The notes under the pieces are model-generated. The model searched no databases. It had not been told where the DNA came from and saw only the letters and a list, made by a program, of their open reading frames with translations. Below, one piece after another: positions 58,022 through 61,740 of a stretch of DNA of 64,000 nucleotides; position 1 is the stretch's first letter, and each line of letters begins with the position of its first letter. The position numbers and the translations under genes are program-made. The stretch is from Escherichia coli (lineage in GTDB: Bacteria > Pseudomonadota > Gammaproteobacteria > Enterobacterales > Enterobacteriaceae). The stretch is from assembly GCF_024700885.2 (NCBI RefSeq), contig NZ_CP117016.1; one strand, written 5' to 3'.

Positions 58022-58250
58022 GAAACAGTCTCACAATAAATACAGGGGCCGACATGAAAGTGCCCGAAAATGACTTTTTTAGGCGTTTCATGTCGGACCT
58101 TTTACGGATTCGATATTAGAAAAAACAAATAGTTATGTTCGAGAAGTACCGACATGATTTTCCCCAGAAAATTTTCATAAATAGCGAAAACCCGCGAGGT
58201 CGCCGCCCCGTAACCTGTCGGATCACCGGAAAGGACCCGTAAAGCGATAA
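58022..58250 (-). other. cos region (cosB, cosN, cosQ); cosN 12-nt cohesive-end sequence at about 58197-58208
   Basis: Minus strand contains GGGCGGCGACCT followed by CGCGGGTTTTCGCTATTTATGAAAATTTTC, matching the recalled lambda left end; the other side matches the recalled lambda right end CGACAGGTTACG. Confidence 0.85.
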
Positions 58251-58407
58251 TGATTATCATCTACATATCACAACGTGCGTGGAGGCCATCAAACCACGTC
58301 AAATAATCAATTATGACGCAGGTATCGTATTAATTGATCTGCATCAACCTAACGTAAAAACAACTTCAGACAATACAAATCAGCGACACTGAATACAGGG
58401 CAACCTC

Positions 58408-58641
58408 ATGTCAACGAAGAACAGAACCCGCAGAACAACAACCCGCAACATCCGCTTTCCTAACCAAATGATTGAACAAATTAACATCGCTCTTGTTCAA
58501 AAAGGGTCCGGGAATTTCTCAGCCTGGGTCATTGAAGCCTGCCGCCGGAGACTGTGCTCAGAAAAAAGAGTTTCGCCTGAAGCAAACAAAGAAAAGAGTG
58601 ACATTACTGAATTGCTCAGAAAACAGGTCAGACCAGATTGA
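58408..58641 (+). CDS. Small phage protein, DUF3950 / YlcI-like
   Basis: 77-aa ORF MSTKNRTRRTTTRNIRFPNQMIEQINIAL...; the same ORF lies next to cos in lambda and DLP12 (recalled). Confidence 0.65.
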   Translation: MSTKNRTRRTTTRNIRFPNQMIEQINIALVQKGSGNFSAWVIEACRRRLCSEKRVSPEANKEKSDITELLRKQVRPD

Positions 58642-58682
58642 AGCAATTTAGATAATCGTGCAGACTCCCCCCCTCATATCAC

Positions 58683-59108
58683 ATGGAAGGTACTACAATG
58701 GCTCAGATTGCCATTTTTAAACAAATATTCGATAAAGTGCGAAATAATTTAAACTATCACTGGTTTTATTCTGAACTAAAACGTCACAATGTCTCACATT
58801 ACATTTACTATTTAGCCACAGAGAATATTCATCTTGTTCTTGAAAACGATAATACGGTTTTAATAAAAGGACAGGGTAAGGTTGTAAATGTAAGATTTTC
58901 AAAAAATAAATGCCTTATAGAAGCCACCTTAAAAGGATTCAAATCAGGAGAGTTATCATTTTACGAATACAGGAAAAATCTTGCTACAGCAGGGGTTTTC
59001 AGATGGATTACAAATATCCACGAAAACAAAAGGTATTACTATACCTTTGATAATTCATTACTCTTTACTGAGAACATTCAGAACACTACACAAATATTTC
59101 CGCACTAA
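58683..59108 (+). CDS. Phage protein, DUF1398 / YbcV-like
   Basis: 141-aa AT-rich ORF; position between Rz and cos parallels ybcV in DLP12 (recalled). Confidence 0.55.
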
Positions 59109-59415
59109 ATCATAACGTCCGGTTTCTTCCGTGCCAGAACCGGACTCGCTGGCATGATGAAATATGTGTACCCGGTAACCCCGGTGTGCATCGTTTTTGA
59201 TTATTCCCCCACACTTGTGCAGAAGGAGTTCCCCGTCAGGCTACAGTCATAATTAATGCAAGAGTACAGCGACGATACAGCGCACAGAAATAAATCAGGT
59301 ATCCATTGACTTCACAAAGACGGTACATAGCATCGACAGGAGTAATTGCGTAAATTGAACTCTTGGCACACTTTAGCCACCGGCGAATCTTCAGCGGATT
59401 ATCCTTGGCCGGTTT

Positions 59416-59880
59416 TTATCTGAGGCATTGCTCTCGAATGTATAGCTGTGCCCCTTCAAGTTGTTTTTGCATTATTATCAGTCGCGCTCTGAGGGTGAAA
59501 TAATCCCGTTCAGCGGTGTCTGCCAGTCGGGGGGAGGCTGCATTATCCACGCCGGAGGCGGTGGTGGCTTCACGCACTGACTGACAGACTGCTTTGATGT
59601 GCAACCGACGACGACCAGCGGCAACATCATCACGCAGAGCATCATTTTCAGCTTTCGCATCAGCTAACTCCTTCGTGTATTTTGCATCGAGCGCAGCAAC
59701 ATCACGCTGACGCATCTGCATGTCAGTAATTGCCGCGTTCGCCAGCTTCAGTTCTCTGACATTTTTGTCGCGCTGGGCTTTGTAGGTAATGGCGTTATCA
59801 CGGTAATGATTCAGCCCCAGACTAAGCGCACCACAGGCCACCAGCAGGGCAATGATGACCACGCACAGTACGCGGTTCAT
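59416..59880 (-). CDS. Rz: i-spanin Rz
   Basis: 154-aa ORF with N-terminal TM segment and coiled coil. Confidence 0.92.
59478..59660 (-). CDS. Rz1: o-spanin Rz1 (lipoprotein, embedded in Rz in the +1 frame)
   Basis: 60-aa ORF with lipobox LVVVGC and a proline-rich stretch, fully inside Rz. Confidence 0.88.
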
Positions 59881-60178
59881 TTCACCACCAGCGTATCTGA
59901 CCGATGAAATAACCAGAGGCCATAATCACAAACACCAGCCAGATAAGAATGAACTTCCAGGTGGATAATTTTTCAGCCATCACTCGAATCTCCCGAATCA
60001 GTTTGCTAAAATCAAACACACTTTCTCCTTTGACTTTTCCGGAGTCAGGAAACACAAAACCCCGCTTGGTGCCAACAAACGGGGTTTTTACTTTTATTCA
60101 CTTACGTTTCGCCACTTCGCAGGATTTCATGTTATCCGCCCGCGTGGCCATGCCTTATTTTTCAGCAAAATATTCTGC

Positions 60179-60712
60179 TTATCTGTCGATACCCCAGCAC
60201 GCCAGCGCGCTCTCCTGGTCACGACGGGATACCTGACCGTAGCAGTTGTTTGAACGAATACGGCAGTCTCTGCCACCGTCCTTAATCCACCAGCGAATCG
60301 CCTCACACGCGCCCCTGCGATCACCTGCATTAATTCGTTTATAAAACGTCGACGGGAAACACTTACCGGGACCAATGTTGTACGGACAGAATGACGCGAT
60401 CCCCGCTTTCTGGGGTTCGCTCAATGGCACTTTGATGTTTTTCTCCACCCATGCCAGCGCCTTATCACGCTCAATGGCGTTGACCTGGTCGCATTTTTCC
60501 TTCGACAGTTTCATACCGGGAAAAACGGGTTTTCCATCCACCATCGTGGCCCCCCGACAGATGGTCCAGTTGCCGGAACCATCGCGGTATGCCGTAGTGT
60601 GGTTACCCTCTTTTTCATCCAGAAACTGGTCAAGTATCTGAGGAGCTGATGCGCCTGCTCCAATCAGCGCCAGAACTGCAGCTGACAGGCCGTATTTGAT
60701 TTTTGCGTTCAT
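60179..60712 (-). CDS. Phage lysozyme / endolysin with N-terminal signal-anchor (SAR-type), RrrD-like
   Basis: 177-aa ORF with hydrophobic, Gly/Ala-rich N-terminal segment; resembles DLP12 RrrD (recalled); not the lambda R transglycosylase. Confidence 0.85.
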   Translation of the reverse strand: MNAKIKYGLSAAVLALIGAGASAPQILDQFLDEKEGNHTTAYRDGSGNWTICRGATMVDGKPVFPGMKLSKEKCDQVNAIERDKALAWVEKNIKVPLSEPQKAGIASFCPYNIGPGKCFPSTFYKRINAGDRRGACEAIRWWIKDGGRDCRIRSNNCYGQVSRRDQESALACWGIDR

Positions 60713-60817
60713 GGATATTTATCAGGATTTATCGGTTTCTGAACCCTGGATATGTTTATCTGTCCCGGCCTGTTGAATCAGGCGGGGAAAAGGTAAAGAC
60801 AATCAAGAGGATTATTT

Positions 60818-61090
60818 ATGGACAATAGCACCATTTCTCTACAGGAGTTGCTCGACTGCATTTCCAGGCTTCGGGATGATGTAAATGCCCTCACTGTTGC
60901 ATTTTCACATCTGGCCTTATCAATTCCCAGGGAGCAAATGCTGCCAACGCTGGCATCCATTCATTTTGAATCACGCAACCCCAAATGGTCCCAGGAACAA
61001 CAAAATTCTTTCAAGTGGCTGGCGGCATTGCTGGAAGAAAATTATGCTGGCAAAACTACCATTTCGGCGGAGTCTTCAGGGAACCAGTAA
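60818..61090 (+). CDS. Hypothetical protein, opposite strand to the late operon
   Basis: 90-aa track ORF whose 3' end overlaps the 3' end of the 61056..61400 gene by about 35 bp; no family recognised. Confidence 0.35.
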   Translation: MDNSTISLQELLDCISRLRDDVNALTVAFSHLALSIPREQMLPTLASIHFESRNPKWSQEQQNSFKWLAALLEENYAGKTTISAESSGNQ

Positions 61091-61400
61091 TCCTTCCCGG
61101 TAGCTTTCCTTTGTAGGTTATCCATACATTCTGCGCCTCTAAAATTACGGGGCGCTTTTCCGGCGACTGCTCATCCCCTTCACATAACCCGGCAGCGACA
61201 TCCAGGAAGACCTGTCTGATGCTCCTTCTGGCCGCTGCCTCATAAAACTCCAGCGCAGCACCTTCAACACGGTCCAGCGAGATGTCCAGGTCAAAAATTT
61301 CACCGTCAAAGCGTTCTTTGTCCTGTAATGCTAAAGTTACCGTAACTTTATTCTCAAAATTGCGGATCCCTTTCACAATCAGTTCATAGTTTTGAGTCAT
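61056..61400 (-). CDS. Hypothetical phage protein between holin and endolysin (possibly DUF1327 / YdfR-like)
   Basis: 114-aa ORF tightly coupled downstream of the holin; family assignment is from memory of Qin ydfR and is uncertain. Confidence 0.55.
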   Translation of the reverse strand: MTQNYELIVKGIRNFENKVTVTLALQDKERFDGEIFDLDISLDRVEGAALEFYEAAARRSIRQVFLDVAAGLCEGDEQSPEKRPVILEAQNVWITYKGKLPGRITGSLKTPPKW

Positions 61401-61404
61401 TGAA

Positions 61405-61620
61405 TTACTCTCCCCGTGCCGCCTTACGACGGTCCTCTCTGATTTTGAAATACAGGTTAGTCAGATATGTCAGCAGCCCAAACAGCAGACTCCCCAGCAC
61501 GCCTATTGCCGCCCACTGAGACGGGGAAACCCTGTCCAGCAACTGCAGGAACCAGTAGCCCGTTCCCACCGCTGACGTGGTGTATGACACACCTGTTGTG
61601 ATTTTTTCCATCTGGTCCAT
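61405..61620 (-). CDS. Class II holin (phage 21 S / EssD-like) with dual-start motif
   Basis: Track ORF 61405..61725; 71-aa product from [26 protein letters not shown] with two TM helices and methionines at positions 1 and 4. Confidence 0.85.
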
Positions 61621-61740
61621 ACCCCGTCTCCCGTTATCCGGAAGCTGAAAACAATAAAAAAGCCACCAGTTAACTACTGATGGCTCTGATAACTCATGCA
61701 AGCGTCTCAGACGACCCACTGACACTACCGGTGAGTTTAA

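Follow-up and report, generated by a model that had tools for sequence, protein, structure and literature searches.

A probable lambdoid mosaic with H-19B-, phage 21- and lambda-type parts at the late end of an Escherichia coli prophage

Introduction

From which phages do the lysis genes, the cos site and the first packaging genes of this prophage descend? We consider a window of 64,000 nucleotides (the whole stretch of DNA analysed), which is 100% identical to the chromosome of E. coli MLI114 (NZ_CP117013.1), and within it a region of 3.7 kb, the late end of a lambdoid prophage of 44.4 kb, which takes in the lysis cassette, cos and the start of the packaging operon. A sequence-only reading had described a mosaic of two modules, with lambda-type packaging and structural genes next to lysis genes of the phage 21/DLP12 type. 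The idea of a mosaic holds, as the morphogenesis genes are lambda-type and the holin and endolysin are not lambda's, but the donors that it names are imprecise and the patchwork is finer-grained. The element is very probably a lambdoid mosaic with an H-19B/Stx1-type lysis cassette, a phage 21-type cosB and Nu1 N-domain, lambda-type genes from A to I, and a 21-type end of J. Coordinates below are those of the window, and features lie on the minus strand unless the plus strand is given.

The prophage and its morphogenesis genes

In MLI114, as in many other E. coli, the prophage occupies the 3' end of tRNA-Ser (serU), beside mtfA. A 62-bp copy of the serU 3' end forms the att repeat at the tail-fibre end (33014..33075, no strand), found as a perfect direct repeat; the second copy is outside the window, at the equivalent of 77433-77494 (L001 39412-39473), and the element between the two is 44,357 bp long.

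Searching with the lambda (NC_001416) proteins by tblastn places A, W, B, C/Nu3, D, E, FI, FII, Z, U, V, G/G-T, H, M, L, K and I at 42767..57501, all full length, with 0 stops and with 92.7-100% identity. When Nu1 and J are added, and G and T are taken separately, the alignments remain without stops, and the outliers in identity to lambda are Nu1 (83%) and J (89%), the other proteins being at about 93-100%. At the DNA level, window 39774-58208 matches lambda 18437-1 with 96.25% identity over 18,454 columns, and the G-T slippery heptamer GGGAAAG has the same offset as in lambda. The earlier statements that Nu1 to J are closely lambda-like and that the structural module has no premature stop are thus borne out. 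The block is not purely lambda, however: cosB, the N-domain of Nu1 and the receptor-binding end of J are 21-type.

The central tail fibre J (39308..42706, 1132 aa) makes this last point. In blocks of 100 residues, its identity to lambda J is 93-99% over residues 1-900, 84% over 901-1000, and 47% and then 38% in the last two blocks, while these two blocks (residues 1001-1132) are 99-100% identical to J of phage 21 (OL657228.1). The DNA match to lambda stops within J, at 39774. By its sequence, J is lambda/21-like with a phage-21-type receptor-binding end. The tail genes as a group are also close to phage 21 (96% DNA identity), whereas the head genes are at 66-69%. Phage 21 has its own overlap of S and R, bor, integration at icd and sit operon, all unlike the prophage. 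The lom gene of lambda is absent from the prophage by comparison with lambda.

Inducible or defective

The next question is whether such an element can still be induced. Inducibility agrees with the sequence features, which do not decide the matter by themselves. A cryptic, defective prophage, in which the late genes look intact while induction gives no infectious phage, is a real possibility, and we lean only slightly against it. Its late genes and ends do not look defective: 21 of the 21 lambda morphogenesis genes are intact, as are the holin, endolysin, Rz and Rz1, Q is present, and the att repeats are perfect. The genome, at 44.4 kb, is near those of lambda and its relatives (42.9-48.5 kb) and should therefore be packageable. 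The early region, outside the window, speaks for a defect. This region differs from that of lambda and is like that of the cryptic prophages Qin and Rac (ydfABC, dicB, hokD, ydaT family); no O/P or DnaC-type replication protein is recognisable among its proteins scanned; and the repressor candidate is a DicA-like HTH_3 protein of 139 aa, with no S24 peptidase domain by Pfam, so that RecA-stimulated self-cleavage is not expected. PGAP flags an early-region ORF as frameshifted and marks DUF1737 and the tail fibre assembly gene as partial, but int keeps an intact ORF of 341 aa whose C-terminus is the same in four lineages, which makes the 'frameshifted' flag systematic and not a sign of a lesion. 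It also counts against a defect that laboratory lambda can do without its side tail fibres. Finally, no record in the phage collection searched reaches 80% coverage of the 3.7-kb lysis-cos region, which also favours a defective element; the exact gene combination has no counterpart there as a virion genome.

The lysis cassette

As had been read, the holin is a class II holin of 71 aa (61405..61620; PF04971, P21 holin S family, 112.6 bits). Its start is the ATG at 61620, or the ATG at 61611 for a form of 68 aa; position 61725, the upper limit of the stretch first described, is the GTG of a mechanical ORF and not the start of the holin. The dual-start motif that had been claimed is there as two in-frame ATGs (ATG GAC CAG ATG), but the extension is M-D-Q and not M-K-S. 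It lacks the Lys that marks the S21-71 antiholin and the extra positive charge reported for S21-71, so that the control of lysis timing may differ from that of S21. The holin is 94% identical to S of H-19B (AF034975), which does not have the upstream ATG of M-D-Q-M, 80% to EssD, and 79% to S21 and EssQ. A terminator-like hairpin is found by consensus scan just upstream of the gene (61659..61687).

The endolysin (60179..60712, 177 aa; PF00959) is of the H-19B R/RrrQ type. Its E35-D44-T50 triad and its N-terminal hydrophobic segment, 61% Gly/Ala/Ser/Thr, predict a SAR lysozyme, in agreement with the earlier claim of a signal-anchor endolysin in place of lambda R. Its identity to H-19B R is 94% and to RrrQ of Qin 91.5%, but to R21/RrrD only 32%.

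Holin and endolysin are not adjacent. Between them are a DUF1327/YdfR-family gene (61056..61400, 114 aa; PF07041, 148.4 bits), whose product matches Qin YdfR at 84% identity over 74 aa, and a 90-aa ORF on the plus strand (60818..61090; phrog_2411, E = 5.5e-55; annotated WP_001351274.1) that is antisense to the YdfR-like gene and overlaps its 3' end. The homologues of the antisense ORF are nearly all in Escherichia/Shigella; it is predicted as a four-helix protein (pLDDT 72.5), and a fold comparison of this predicted structure gave no informative match.

Downstream of the endolysin gene lies the R-Rz spacer of 298 bp, which H-19B and other Stx phages share at 94-95% identity (94.6% versus H-19B). 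It contains a terminator-like hairpin (60056..60088; consensus scan), with a similar hairpin also present at the Salmonella locus, and an unannotated 45-aa ORF with a single TMD (59882..60019; phrog_6632, E = 1.4e-29) that stops one base ahead of the Rz start. Homologues of this ORF are in Escherichia and Salmonella, with an identical position in a Salmonella prophage that carries a different holin family, and the differences by codon position are 15/6/20.

The i-spanin Rz (59416..59880, 154 aa; PF03245, 177.7 bits) is 84% identical to lambda and 83% to phage 21, with Cys99 and Cys152 as in lambda. Its first block has 100% identity with H-19B Rz and 25% with lambda, after which the identity to lambda is 85-100%; the first ~20 residues are thus H-19B type by sequence and the remainder, nearer to lambda/21 than to H-19B, is lambda/21 type. 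The o-spanin Rz1 (59478..59660, 60 aa; PF06085, 71.3 bits), embedded in Rz in the +1 frame, matches Rz1 of phage 21 at 100% identity and that of lambda at 98% over 59 aa. Like lambda Rz1, it has Cys29 and a Cys20 set in a lipobox-like context (VVGC). Apart from the beginning of Rz, the two spanins are lambda-like, as had been stated.

The H-19B/Stx1-type stretch runs from S through the YdfR-like gene, the antisense ORF, R and the R-Rz spacer (45-aa ORF included) into Rz, of which it takes in the first ~20 codons. The cassette is of the type of H-19B and the Stx1 phages, and it resembles Qin in the order essQ-ydfR-rrrQ. Its holin/endolysin pair, not that of lambda, would be of the pinholin and SAR-endolysin kind, with pinholin behaviour and SAR release read from the protein sequences. 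About 99% of Stx phages are reported to have a pinholin and a predicted SAR endolysin (PMC8136144), and the Stx phage holins have been placed in the P21 S family through H-19B (PMC10462455). Going by homology only, Q-antiterminated late transcription would pass several terminator-like hairpins into S; the pinholin would build up and depolarise the inner membrane; the membrane-tethered SAR endolysin would then be freed and turn active; and Rz/Rz1 would disrupt the outer membrane.

Could the locus nevertheless be a purely lambda packaging/structural block joined to a phage 21/DLP12 lysis cassette (S21/EssD, R21/RrrD, Rz/Rz1)? Such an origin would explain a holin that scores in PF04971 at 79-80% to S21 and EssD, the identities of Rz1 (100%) and Rz (83%) to phage 21, and A to I at 93-100% to lambda. 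We consider it quite unlikely. The endolysin is at only 32% to R21/RrrD while S and R are at 94% to H-19B, and the gene order differs, with two ORFs between S and R, the 298-bp spacer and no bor; the attribution of the lysis genes to phage 21/DLP12 therefore fails. The cosB and the Nu1 N-domain, being 21-type instead of lambda-type, also stand against it.

The cos site and the small terminase subunit

The cosN cohesive-end 12-mer GGGCGGCGACCT, identical in lambda and phage 21, has a lone exact match in the window (58197-58208). Beside it, 58209..58570 is 97% identical to the right end of lambda (48141-48502), including cosQ (GGGTCCT, 58232-58238, upstream of cosN). Lambda and 21 are reported to have cosQ and cosN in common (PMC4669245), and the cosQ and cosN read here are of this common sequence. 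To this extent the cos site follows lambda, as had been proposed, but cosB does not. Alignment with the annotated cos of phage 21 gives a 21-type cosB at 58022..58166, with cores R3 (58149-58156), R2 (inverted, 58089-58096) and R1 (58049-58056). These three CATGTCGG cores stand at phage coordinates 53-60, 113-120 (inverted) and 153-160, the positions of phage 21, where lambda reads CGTTTCC.

The small terminase subunit Nu1 (57476..58021, 181 aa) is chimeric by sliding identity against phage 21 gp1 and lambda. Over residues 1-80, the DNA-binding domain, identity is 85% with phage 21 gp1 and 64% with lambda, whereas from residue 81, the C-terminal 100 residues, identity to lambda is 95-100%; that Nu1 follows lambda is correct for this second part and not for the first ~80 codons. 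Nu1 carries E20 and S24 as TerS-21 does, while lambda has Q20 and E24. The reported determinants of specificity are positions 20 and 24 of TerS together with base pairs 56 and 59 of R3 (PMC4669245). Packaging recognition (the cosB R sites and Nu1 residues ~1-80) thus appears to be phage-21 type, and the rest of Nu1 and gpA lambda type. By homology, the N-domain of the chimeric Nu1 would sit on the 21-type R sites, its C-domain would hold the lambda-type gpA, and gpA would nick cosN.

We predict the packaging specificity of phage 21. The laboratory hybrid lambda-21 hy51, which is viable and has a chimeric TerS, shows this specificity (PMC4669245). Since the Nu1 N-domain is 85% and not 100% identical to phage 21 gp1, and R3 is CATGTCGG here versus CGTGTCGG in phage 21, the specificity could differ in detail. 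In hy51, from the Feiss laboratory (PMC4669245), phage 21 supplies cosB and the small terminase gene's 5' part, and lambda the adjoining Nu1 C-terminus and gpA. That hybrid was constructed, whereas the crossover in the prophage is natural, with a donor segment that is 21-like (82% DNA identity) and not phage 21 itself; a natural prophage thus shows the same kind of cosB/Nu1 crossover. The isolated phage IdasGreatGrand has a Nu1 N-domain that is 98.8% identical, and its structural region is at 96.4% over 15.5 kb.

Origin and distribution of the mosaic

Three of the junctions in the proposed mosaic are intragenic (Rz, Nu1 and J) and fall at stretches conserved between the parental types, a pattern that homologous recombination of co-resident lambdoid phages produces. 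We found nothing to support an artefact of assembly or a chimera in a single genome, and reject it as extremely improbable, because the 3.7 kb recur full length at 99.8-100% identity in many complete genomes that are independent and come from different countries and hosts, the arrangement is present in 177 genomes, and the individual junction types occur in isolated phages.

The lysis-cos region is covered to at least 80% in 177 E. coli genomes, with 126 records matching at 99% or more. The combination of H-19B-type lysis genes and a lambda-type head recurs in these genomes and in Stx1a phages. In the Stx1a-converting phage Stx1_9793 (LC645428.1), cos and lambda-type head genes come straight after an H-19B-type cassette (93.9% over 9.9 kb), but its tail genes are only 74-78% identical, those of the prophage being lambda/21-type. 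H-19B and the Stx1a phages also differ in carrying stx upstream; the window has no stx, and between Q and S there are tRNAs, STnc100, an iraM-like gene and remnants in its place. The prophage is a common, already annotated lambda-like type, a patchwork of known phage modules and nothing new in kind.

The cryptic prophages of E. coli K-12 are similar in parts. Qin shares the essQ-ydfR-rrrQ order and has ynfO-ydfO beside a Nu1 homologue, but its spanins are RzpQ/RzoQ of the DUF2514 type, cold-shock genes are inserted in it, and its morphogenesis genes are lost. DLP12 is near in RzpD (82%) and RzoD (98%) as well as EssD, but it has borD and ybcW and is without a ydfR-like gene; bor is missing from the lysis-cos region of the prophage by gene order and comparison with lambda. 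Two plus-strand genes between cos and Rz are Qin/DLP12/lambda-like by sequence comparison. One encodes a DUF1398 protein of the YbcV/YdfO/lambda p78 family (58698..59108, 136 aa; PF07166, 147 bits), 75-77% identical to these three (YbcV 77%). The other, the cos-proximal ORF (58408..58641, 77 aa; PF13132, DUF3950, 72.8 bits), encodes a YlcI/YnfO-family small protein that is 97% identical to Qin YnfO and, over its first 54 aa, 96% to DLP12 YlcI, whose sequence is also that of an ORF left unannotated in lambda (48303, complement strand).

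Origin of the region and of the prophage

We begin by considering the origin of the region at 58022-61725, which runs from the lysis genes through cos to the start of the packaging operon. The region and the E. coli MLI114 chromosome (NZ_CP117013.1) are 100% identical, and no mismatch to this record occurs over the entire 64-kb window. Host DNA makes up the left half of the window, with the fli operon, rcsA, dcm-vsr, hprRS, msrPQ and zinT, and the prophage, which is read from the minus strand, occupies it from about 33 kb onward. A 62-bp copy of the tRNA-Ser 3' end is located at 33014-33075 and recurs, as a perfect direct repeat, beside the integrase gene outside the window; the two copies enclose 44,357 bp. 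Because these repeats bracket the element, the region is the late part of a lambdoid prophage integrated at serU. An assembly artefact as the cause of the mosaic is ruled out by the recurrence of the 3.7-kb region across E. coli: at least 80% of it is found in 177 complete genomes, with 126 records at 99% identity or higher. In the phage collection, 0 records cover at least 80% of this lysis-cos region.

The host flank and the prophage end carry other features. A remnant of an integrase gene (1530-1724, a partial integrase according to PGAP) is found beside fliE/yedL and matches a section of the IdasGreatGrand phage integrase region with 95.9% identity. An IS3-family element (IS1397, 30105-31453) interrupts the interval from msrQ to zinT. 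At 33311-33407, a little way inside the prophage end, a fragment of about 100 bp, annotated by PGAP as a partial "capsid protein", has 90% identity to the lambda b-region (24162-24259) and 84% to phage 21 25596-25672. A gene for a sensor-domain diguanylate cyclase (33666-34997, plus strand, GC 36-39%), located in the prophage just within the att repeat, looks like cargo.

Structural module and the receptor-binding end of J

The structural genes are of the lambda type. In blastn, window 39774-58208 matches lambda 18437-1 with 96.25% identity over 18,454 columns, and a further 97% match lies beyond cos (lambda 48141-48502). With every lambda morphogenesis protein as the tblastn query, all matches are full length and free of stops, which bears out the sequence-only reading that the module has no premature stops. 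The identities to lambda are 99.1% (A), 100% (W), 99.6% (B), 98.6% (C), 99.1% (D), 99.7% (E), 93.9% (FI), 97.4% (FII), 99.0% (Z), 99.2% (U), 97.6% (V), 94.3% (G), 97.2% (T), 97.2% (H), 92.7% (M), 98.3% (L), 97.5% (K) and 97.8% (I); the G-T slippery heptamer GGGAAAG is found at the same offset as in lambda. Compared with lambda, the prophage lacks lom, its side tail fibre genes are different, and the fibre-assembly gene is a remnant.

The likeness to lambda ends near the C-terminus of J. Residues 1-900 have 93-99% identity to lambda J and residues 901-1000 have 84%, whereas residues 1001-1132 have only 38-47% identity to lambda and 99-100% to phage 21 J. The receptor-binding end is therefore of the 21 type.

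cos, cosB and the small terminase

A second switch is located at the packaging site. The exact 12-mer of the lambda cohesive end is found at 58197-58208, with cosQ (GGGTCCT) upstream of cosN and flanks identical to lambda, so that both cosN and cosQ are those of lambda packaging; these two elements are common to lambda and phage 21 (PMC4669245). A base-by-base alignment shows a sharp drop in identity to lambda between about lambda positions 45 and 408, after which the value is back at about 99%. The low-identity span covers cosB and the first 72-80 or so codons of Nu1, the small terminase (TerS). Residues 1-80 of Nu1 have 85% identity to phage 21 gp1 and 64% to lambda Nu1, and from residue 81 the protein is 95-100% lambda.

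The alignment with the annotated phage 21 cos places three CATGTCGG cores in cosB, at 53-60, 113-120 (inverted) and 153-160 in phage coordinates. Their positions and orientations are those of R3, R2 and R1 of phage 21, while lambda has CGTTTCC at the corresponding places. In packaging, lambda and 21 each prefer their own DNA over that of the other by a factor of more than 1000, and the determinants of this specificity are bp 56 and 59 of R3 and residues 20 and 24 of TerS (PMC4669245). At these four positions the prophage has G56 and G59 (lambda T56 and C59) and, in the recognition helix, E20 and S24 (lambda Q20 and E24); neither the R sites of lambda nor its Q20/E24 pair is found. The sequence-only reading, in which cos and Nu1 follow lambda, thus holds for cosN, cosQ and Nu1 from residue 81 onward, and fails for cosB and Nu1 residues 1-80. 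From these positions, a packaging specificity of the 21 type is predicted for the prophage.

This arrangement has a counterpart in the laboratory. The hybrid lambda-21 hy51, which joins cosB and the 5' portion of gene 1 from phage 21 to lambda Nu1, is viable (PMC4669245). Since its G56, G59, E20 and S24 are those of phage 21, the prophage is a natural counterpart of this hybrid: a wild element carries a lambda/21 chimeric TerS of the kind built by the Feiss laboratory for mapping specificity domains, which shows that the domain boundary is also a natural recombination joint. The isolated phage IdasGreatGrand has a Nu1 N-domain 98.8% identical to that of the prophage and a structural region 96.4% identical over 15.5 kb, and therefore the chimeric arrangement occurs in a virion genome too.

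Holin and endolysin

The holin S (61405-61620) is, as had been read from the sequence, a 71-residue class II holin. It matches PF04971 with 112.6 bits against a cut-off of 26 and aligns without gaps over all 71 residues to S21 (79% identity), which places it in the P21 holin S family; the identities to EssQ, EssD and H-19B S are 79%, 80% and 94%. Pinholins of this family form small heptameric pinholes that depolarise the membrane without releasing a cytoplasmic endolysin. The dual-start motif that had been noticed is present in so far as codons 1 and 4 are both in-frame ATGs (ATG GAC CAG ATG, M-D-Q-M), but its presumed meaning does not carry over. The holin genes of phage 21, DLP12 and Qin start with ATG AAA TCN ATG (M-K-S-M), that of Stx1_9793 encodes M-Y-Q-M, and H-19B S has no upstream ATG. 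The S21-71 antiholin is distinguished by an extra positive charge (PMC9636201), whereas the M-D-Q extension adds Asp in its place; the sequence does not support the 71-residue form as an antiholin of the known kind.

The endolysin R (60179-60712, 177 residues; PF00959, 85.7 bits) has the catalytic triad E35, D44 and T50 (numbered as in R21) with the Glu-8aa-Asp-5aa-Thr spacing, and its PDB matches include R21 (3hde) and RrrD (4zpu). Residues 7-24 (YGLSAAVLALIGAGASAP) form a weakly hydrophobic N-terminal transmembrane segment that is rich in Gly, Ala, Ser and Thr (61%, vs 65% in R21), with 1.69 as the best 17-residue hydropathy window, and the ASA motif in this segment is followed by Pro. A Pro in this position disfavours cleavage by signal peptidase. 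SAR endolysins keep their N-terminal segment uncleaved, are exported in a Sec-dependent manner, tethered to the membrane and released upon loss of the proton motive force, and we predict from the above features that R belongs to this class; for the endolysins of Stx phages, such export and release are likewise a prediction only (PMC8136144). The earlier description of R as a signal-anchor lysozyme agrees with this prediction, but its assignment to the phage 21/DLP12 type does not hold: R is 94% identical to H-19B R, 91.5% to Qin RrrQ and only 32% to R21 and RrrD.

Layout of the lysis cassette

The gene order also differs from that of 21 and DLP12, where an R21/RrrD-type endolysin gene would directly follow and overlap the holin gene. 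The gap between S and R is about 690 bp and holds two other ORFs: a DUF1327/YdfR-family gene (61056-61400) and orf90 (60818-61090, plus strand, antisense to the late operon; phrog_2411, WP_001351274.1), which shares 35 nt with the YdfR-like gene at the 3' end of the latter. The homologues of orf90 are almost all from Escherichia and Shigella. Its AlphaFold model has four helices (pLDDT 72.5) and gives no Foldseek match in the PDB with E <= 0.001, so that no function could be obtained from structure. A role in defence for the YdfR-like, orf90, DUF1398, DUF3950, diguanylate cyclase and IraM-like proteins was dropped because PADLOC gives 0 hits on them.

The spanins are lambda-like, as claimed before. 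Rz (59416-59880, PF03245), the i-spanin with an N-terminal transmembrane domain, and Rz1 (59478-59660, minus strand, PF06085), the o-spanin lipoprotein, form an embedded two-component pair, with Rz1 wholly inside Rz in the +1 frame and the periplasmic cysteines of lambda (Rz Cys99 and Cys152, Rz1 Cys20 and Cys29). Rz1 is 100% identical to that of phage 21 and, over 59 residues, 98% to that of lambda. The first 20 or so residues of Rz are identical (100%) to H-19B Rz, and the rest is of the lambda/21 type, with a DNA identity of 94% to lambda 46027-46421. The intact Rz1 is missing from the RefSeq annotation of the source genome.

Between R and Rz is a spacer of 298 bp with a terminator-like hairpin and a 45-residue membrane ORF; the spacer has 94.6% identity to that of H-19B, and across H-19B and a large number of Stx1 and Stx2 phages the identity is 94-95%. 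Beyond Rz, no match to bor or to lambda 46428-46866 is found by blastn, and the annotation contains no bor. The interval between Rz and cos holds a DUF1398 gene (75-77% identity to YbcV, YdfO and lambda p78) and a YnfO-type DUF3950 gene, which is 97% identical to Qin YnfO and whose N-terminal part matches an unannotated lambda ORF. In the lambda reference itself, the complement of 48109-48303, beside cos, encodes an unannotated ORF of 64 residues with exactly the sequence of DLP12 YlcI (DUF3950).

Aligned to phage 21, DLP12 and lambda, the lysis genes thus agree with the proposed donors in the Rz/Rz1 pair and in the family of the holin, and disagree in the endolysin, the gene order and bor. 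A plain mosaic of lambda with 21/DLP12 is rejected for the endolysin (32% identity) and for cosB/Nu1. The holin of the 68/71-residue kind, the 177-residue endolysin, the spacer of about 300 bp and the lambda-family Rz/Rz1 together make up a cassette of the H-19B/Stx-phage type with a Qin-like gene order. The Stx1a-converting phage Stx1_9793 has the equivalent cassette directly beside cos and lambda-type head genes (93.9% identity over 9.9 kb). About 99% of Stx phages have a pinholin, a predicted SAR endolysin and a lambda-family Rz (PMC8136144), and their holins have been placed in the P21 S family through H-19B (PMC10462455).

The 45-residue ORF beside Rz

The only loose end of some interest in the region is the 45-residue ORF (59882-60019, minus strand; phrog_6632), which has a GTG start, a single transmembrane domain and a stop one base before the Rz start, and is not annotated in the RefSeq record. 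Its differences by codon position (15/6/20) fit a coding sequence. Its similarity in the transmembrane domain had led to the guess that it is a remnant of the N-terminus of a Qin-type (DUF2514) i-spanin; this reading was dropped because phrog_6632 is a conserved family of its own and the synteny is conserved in Salmonella. The position is kept in Escherichia prophages and Stx phages, and a Salmonella prophage has the ORF there too, although its holin is of another family and its endolysin is R21-like. [quoted passage not shown]

Proposed mechanism and inducibility

All the parts of a pinholin/SAR-endolysin/two-component spanin lysis system and of a cos-terminase packaging system are intact in sequence. 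By homology, Q-modified RNA polymerase would pass the terminator-like hairpins (63938-63919, 62761-62740, 61687-61659 and 60088-60056) into the late genes. The pinholin would then trigger and depolarise the membrane, the tethered endolysin would be released, and the spanin complex would disrupt the outer membrane. In packaging, the chimeric Nu1 would bind the 21-type cosB and place the lambda-type gpA to nick cosN.

On inducibility, the features of the sequence point both ways. In favour, the element is 44.4 kb long with perfect repeats at both att sites, it carries Q, and its 341-residue integrase ORF is intact, as are its morphogenesis and lysis genes. Against induction, or uncertain in their bearing on it, are an early region similar to Qin and Rac, an early ORF that the annotation marks as disrupted, a repressor candidate (a DicA-like HTH protein of 139 residues) with no S24 peptidase domain by Pfam, and the lack of any phage-collection record that covers 80% or more of the 3.7-kb lysis-cos region. 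The integrase gene (38334-39384 of L001, the stretch outside the window with the second att repeat) is flagged "frameshifted" by PGAP, which could be taken as a sign of a dead prophage. This reading is rejected: the flag appears in all four genomes examined, and the four lineages, O157:H7 included, each have an ORF of 340-341 residues with an identical C-terminus. Since the ORF is conserved yet flagged in every lineage examined, the flag is systematic and marks no lesion, and it looks like an annotation artefact of serU-type integrases. In 1093 genomes the int region is covered to 80% or more.

Significance and the Q-S interval

Mosaicism of lambdoid phages is textbook knowledge. The interpretation as a module mosaic was right in kind, and what had to be changed is the type of the endolysin, the donor of the cassette, the specificity of cosB/Nu1 and what the dual start means. 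The region is real but ordinary: close relatives with names exist for all of its modules, and the combination occurs in sequenced Stx1 phages and many E. coli genomes. The cassette is the one that Stx phages commonly have, and more than 100 complete E. coli genomes carry the prophage in annotated form. The value of the analysis is mainly in correct annotation, and beyond that there is little. A "type" named from the head genes would mispredict both the packaging and the receptor specificity of the phage, and annotation pipelines miss Rz1 and the conserved 45-residue ORF and systematically flag the intact serU-type integrase as frameshifted.

Further observations concern the interval between Q and S. 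Downstream of Q are two phage-borne tRNA genes on the minus strand (63617-63693 and 63800-63875), one for Arg (UCU) and the other with a CAU anticodon that is Met according to ARAGORN and Ile according to PGAP. Stx phages carry tRNAs and stx at the corresponding site; no toxin genes are present at 63617-63875. In the late leader region, Rfam gives a match of 132 bits to the sRNA STnc100 (62731-62920, minus strand), the 3' end of which coincides with the strong terminator-like hairpin at 62761-62740. Opposite to late transcription, the interval also contains a gene for an IraM-like anti-adapter (62370-62705, plus strand; NCBIfam PRK09919, E = 7e-48).
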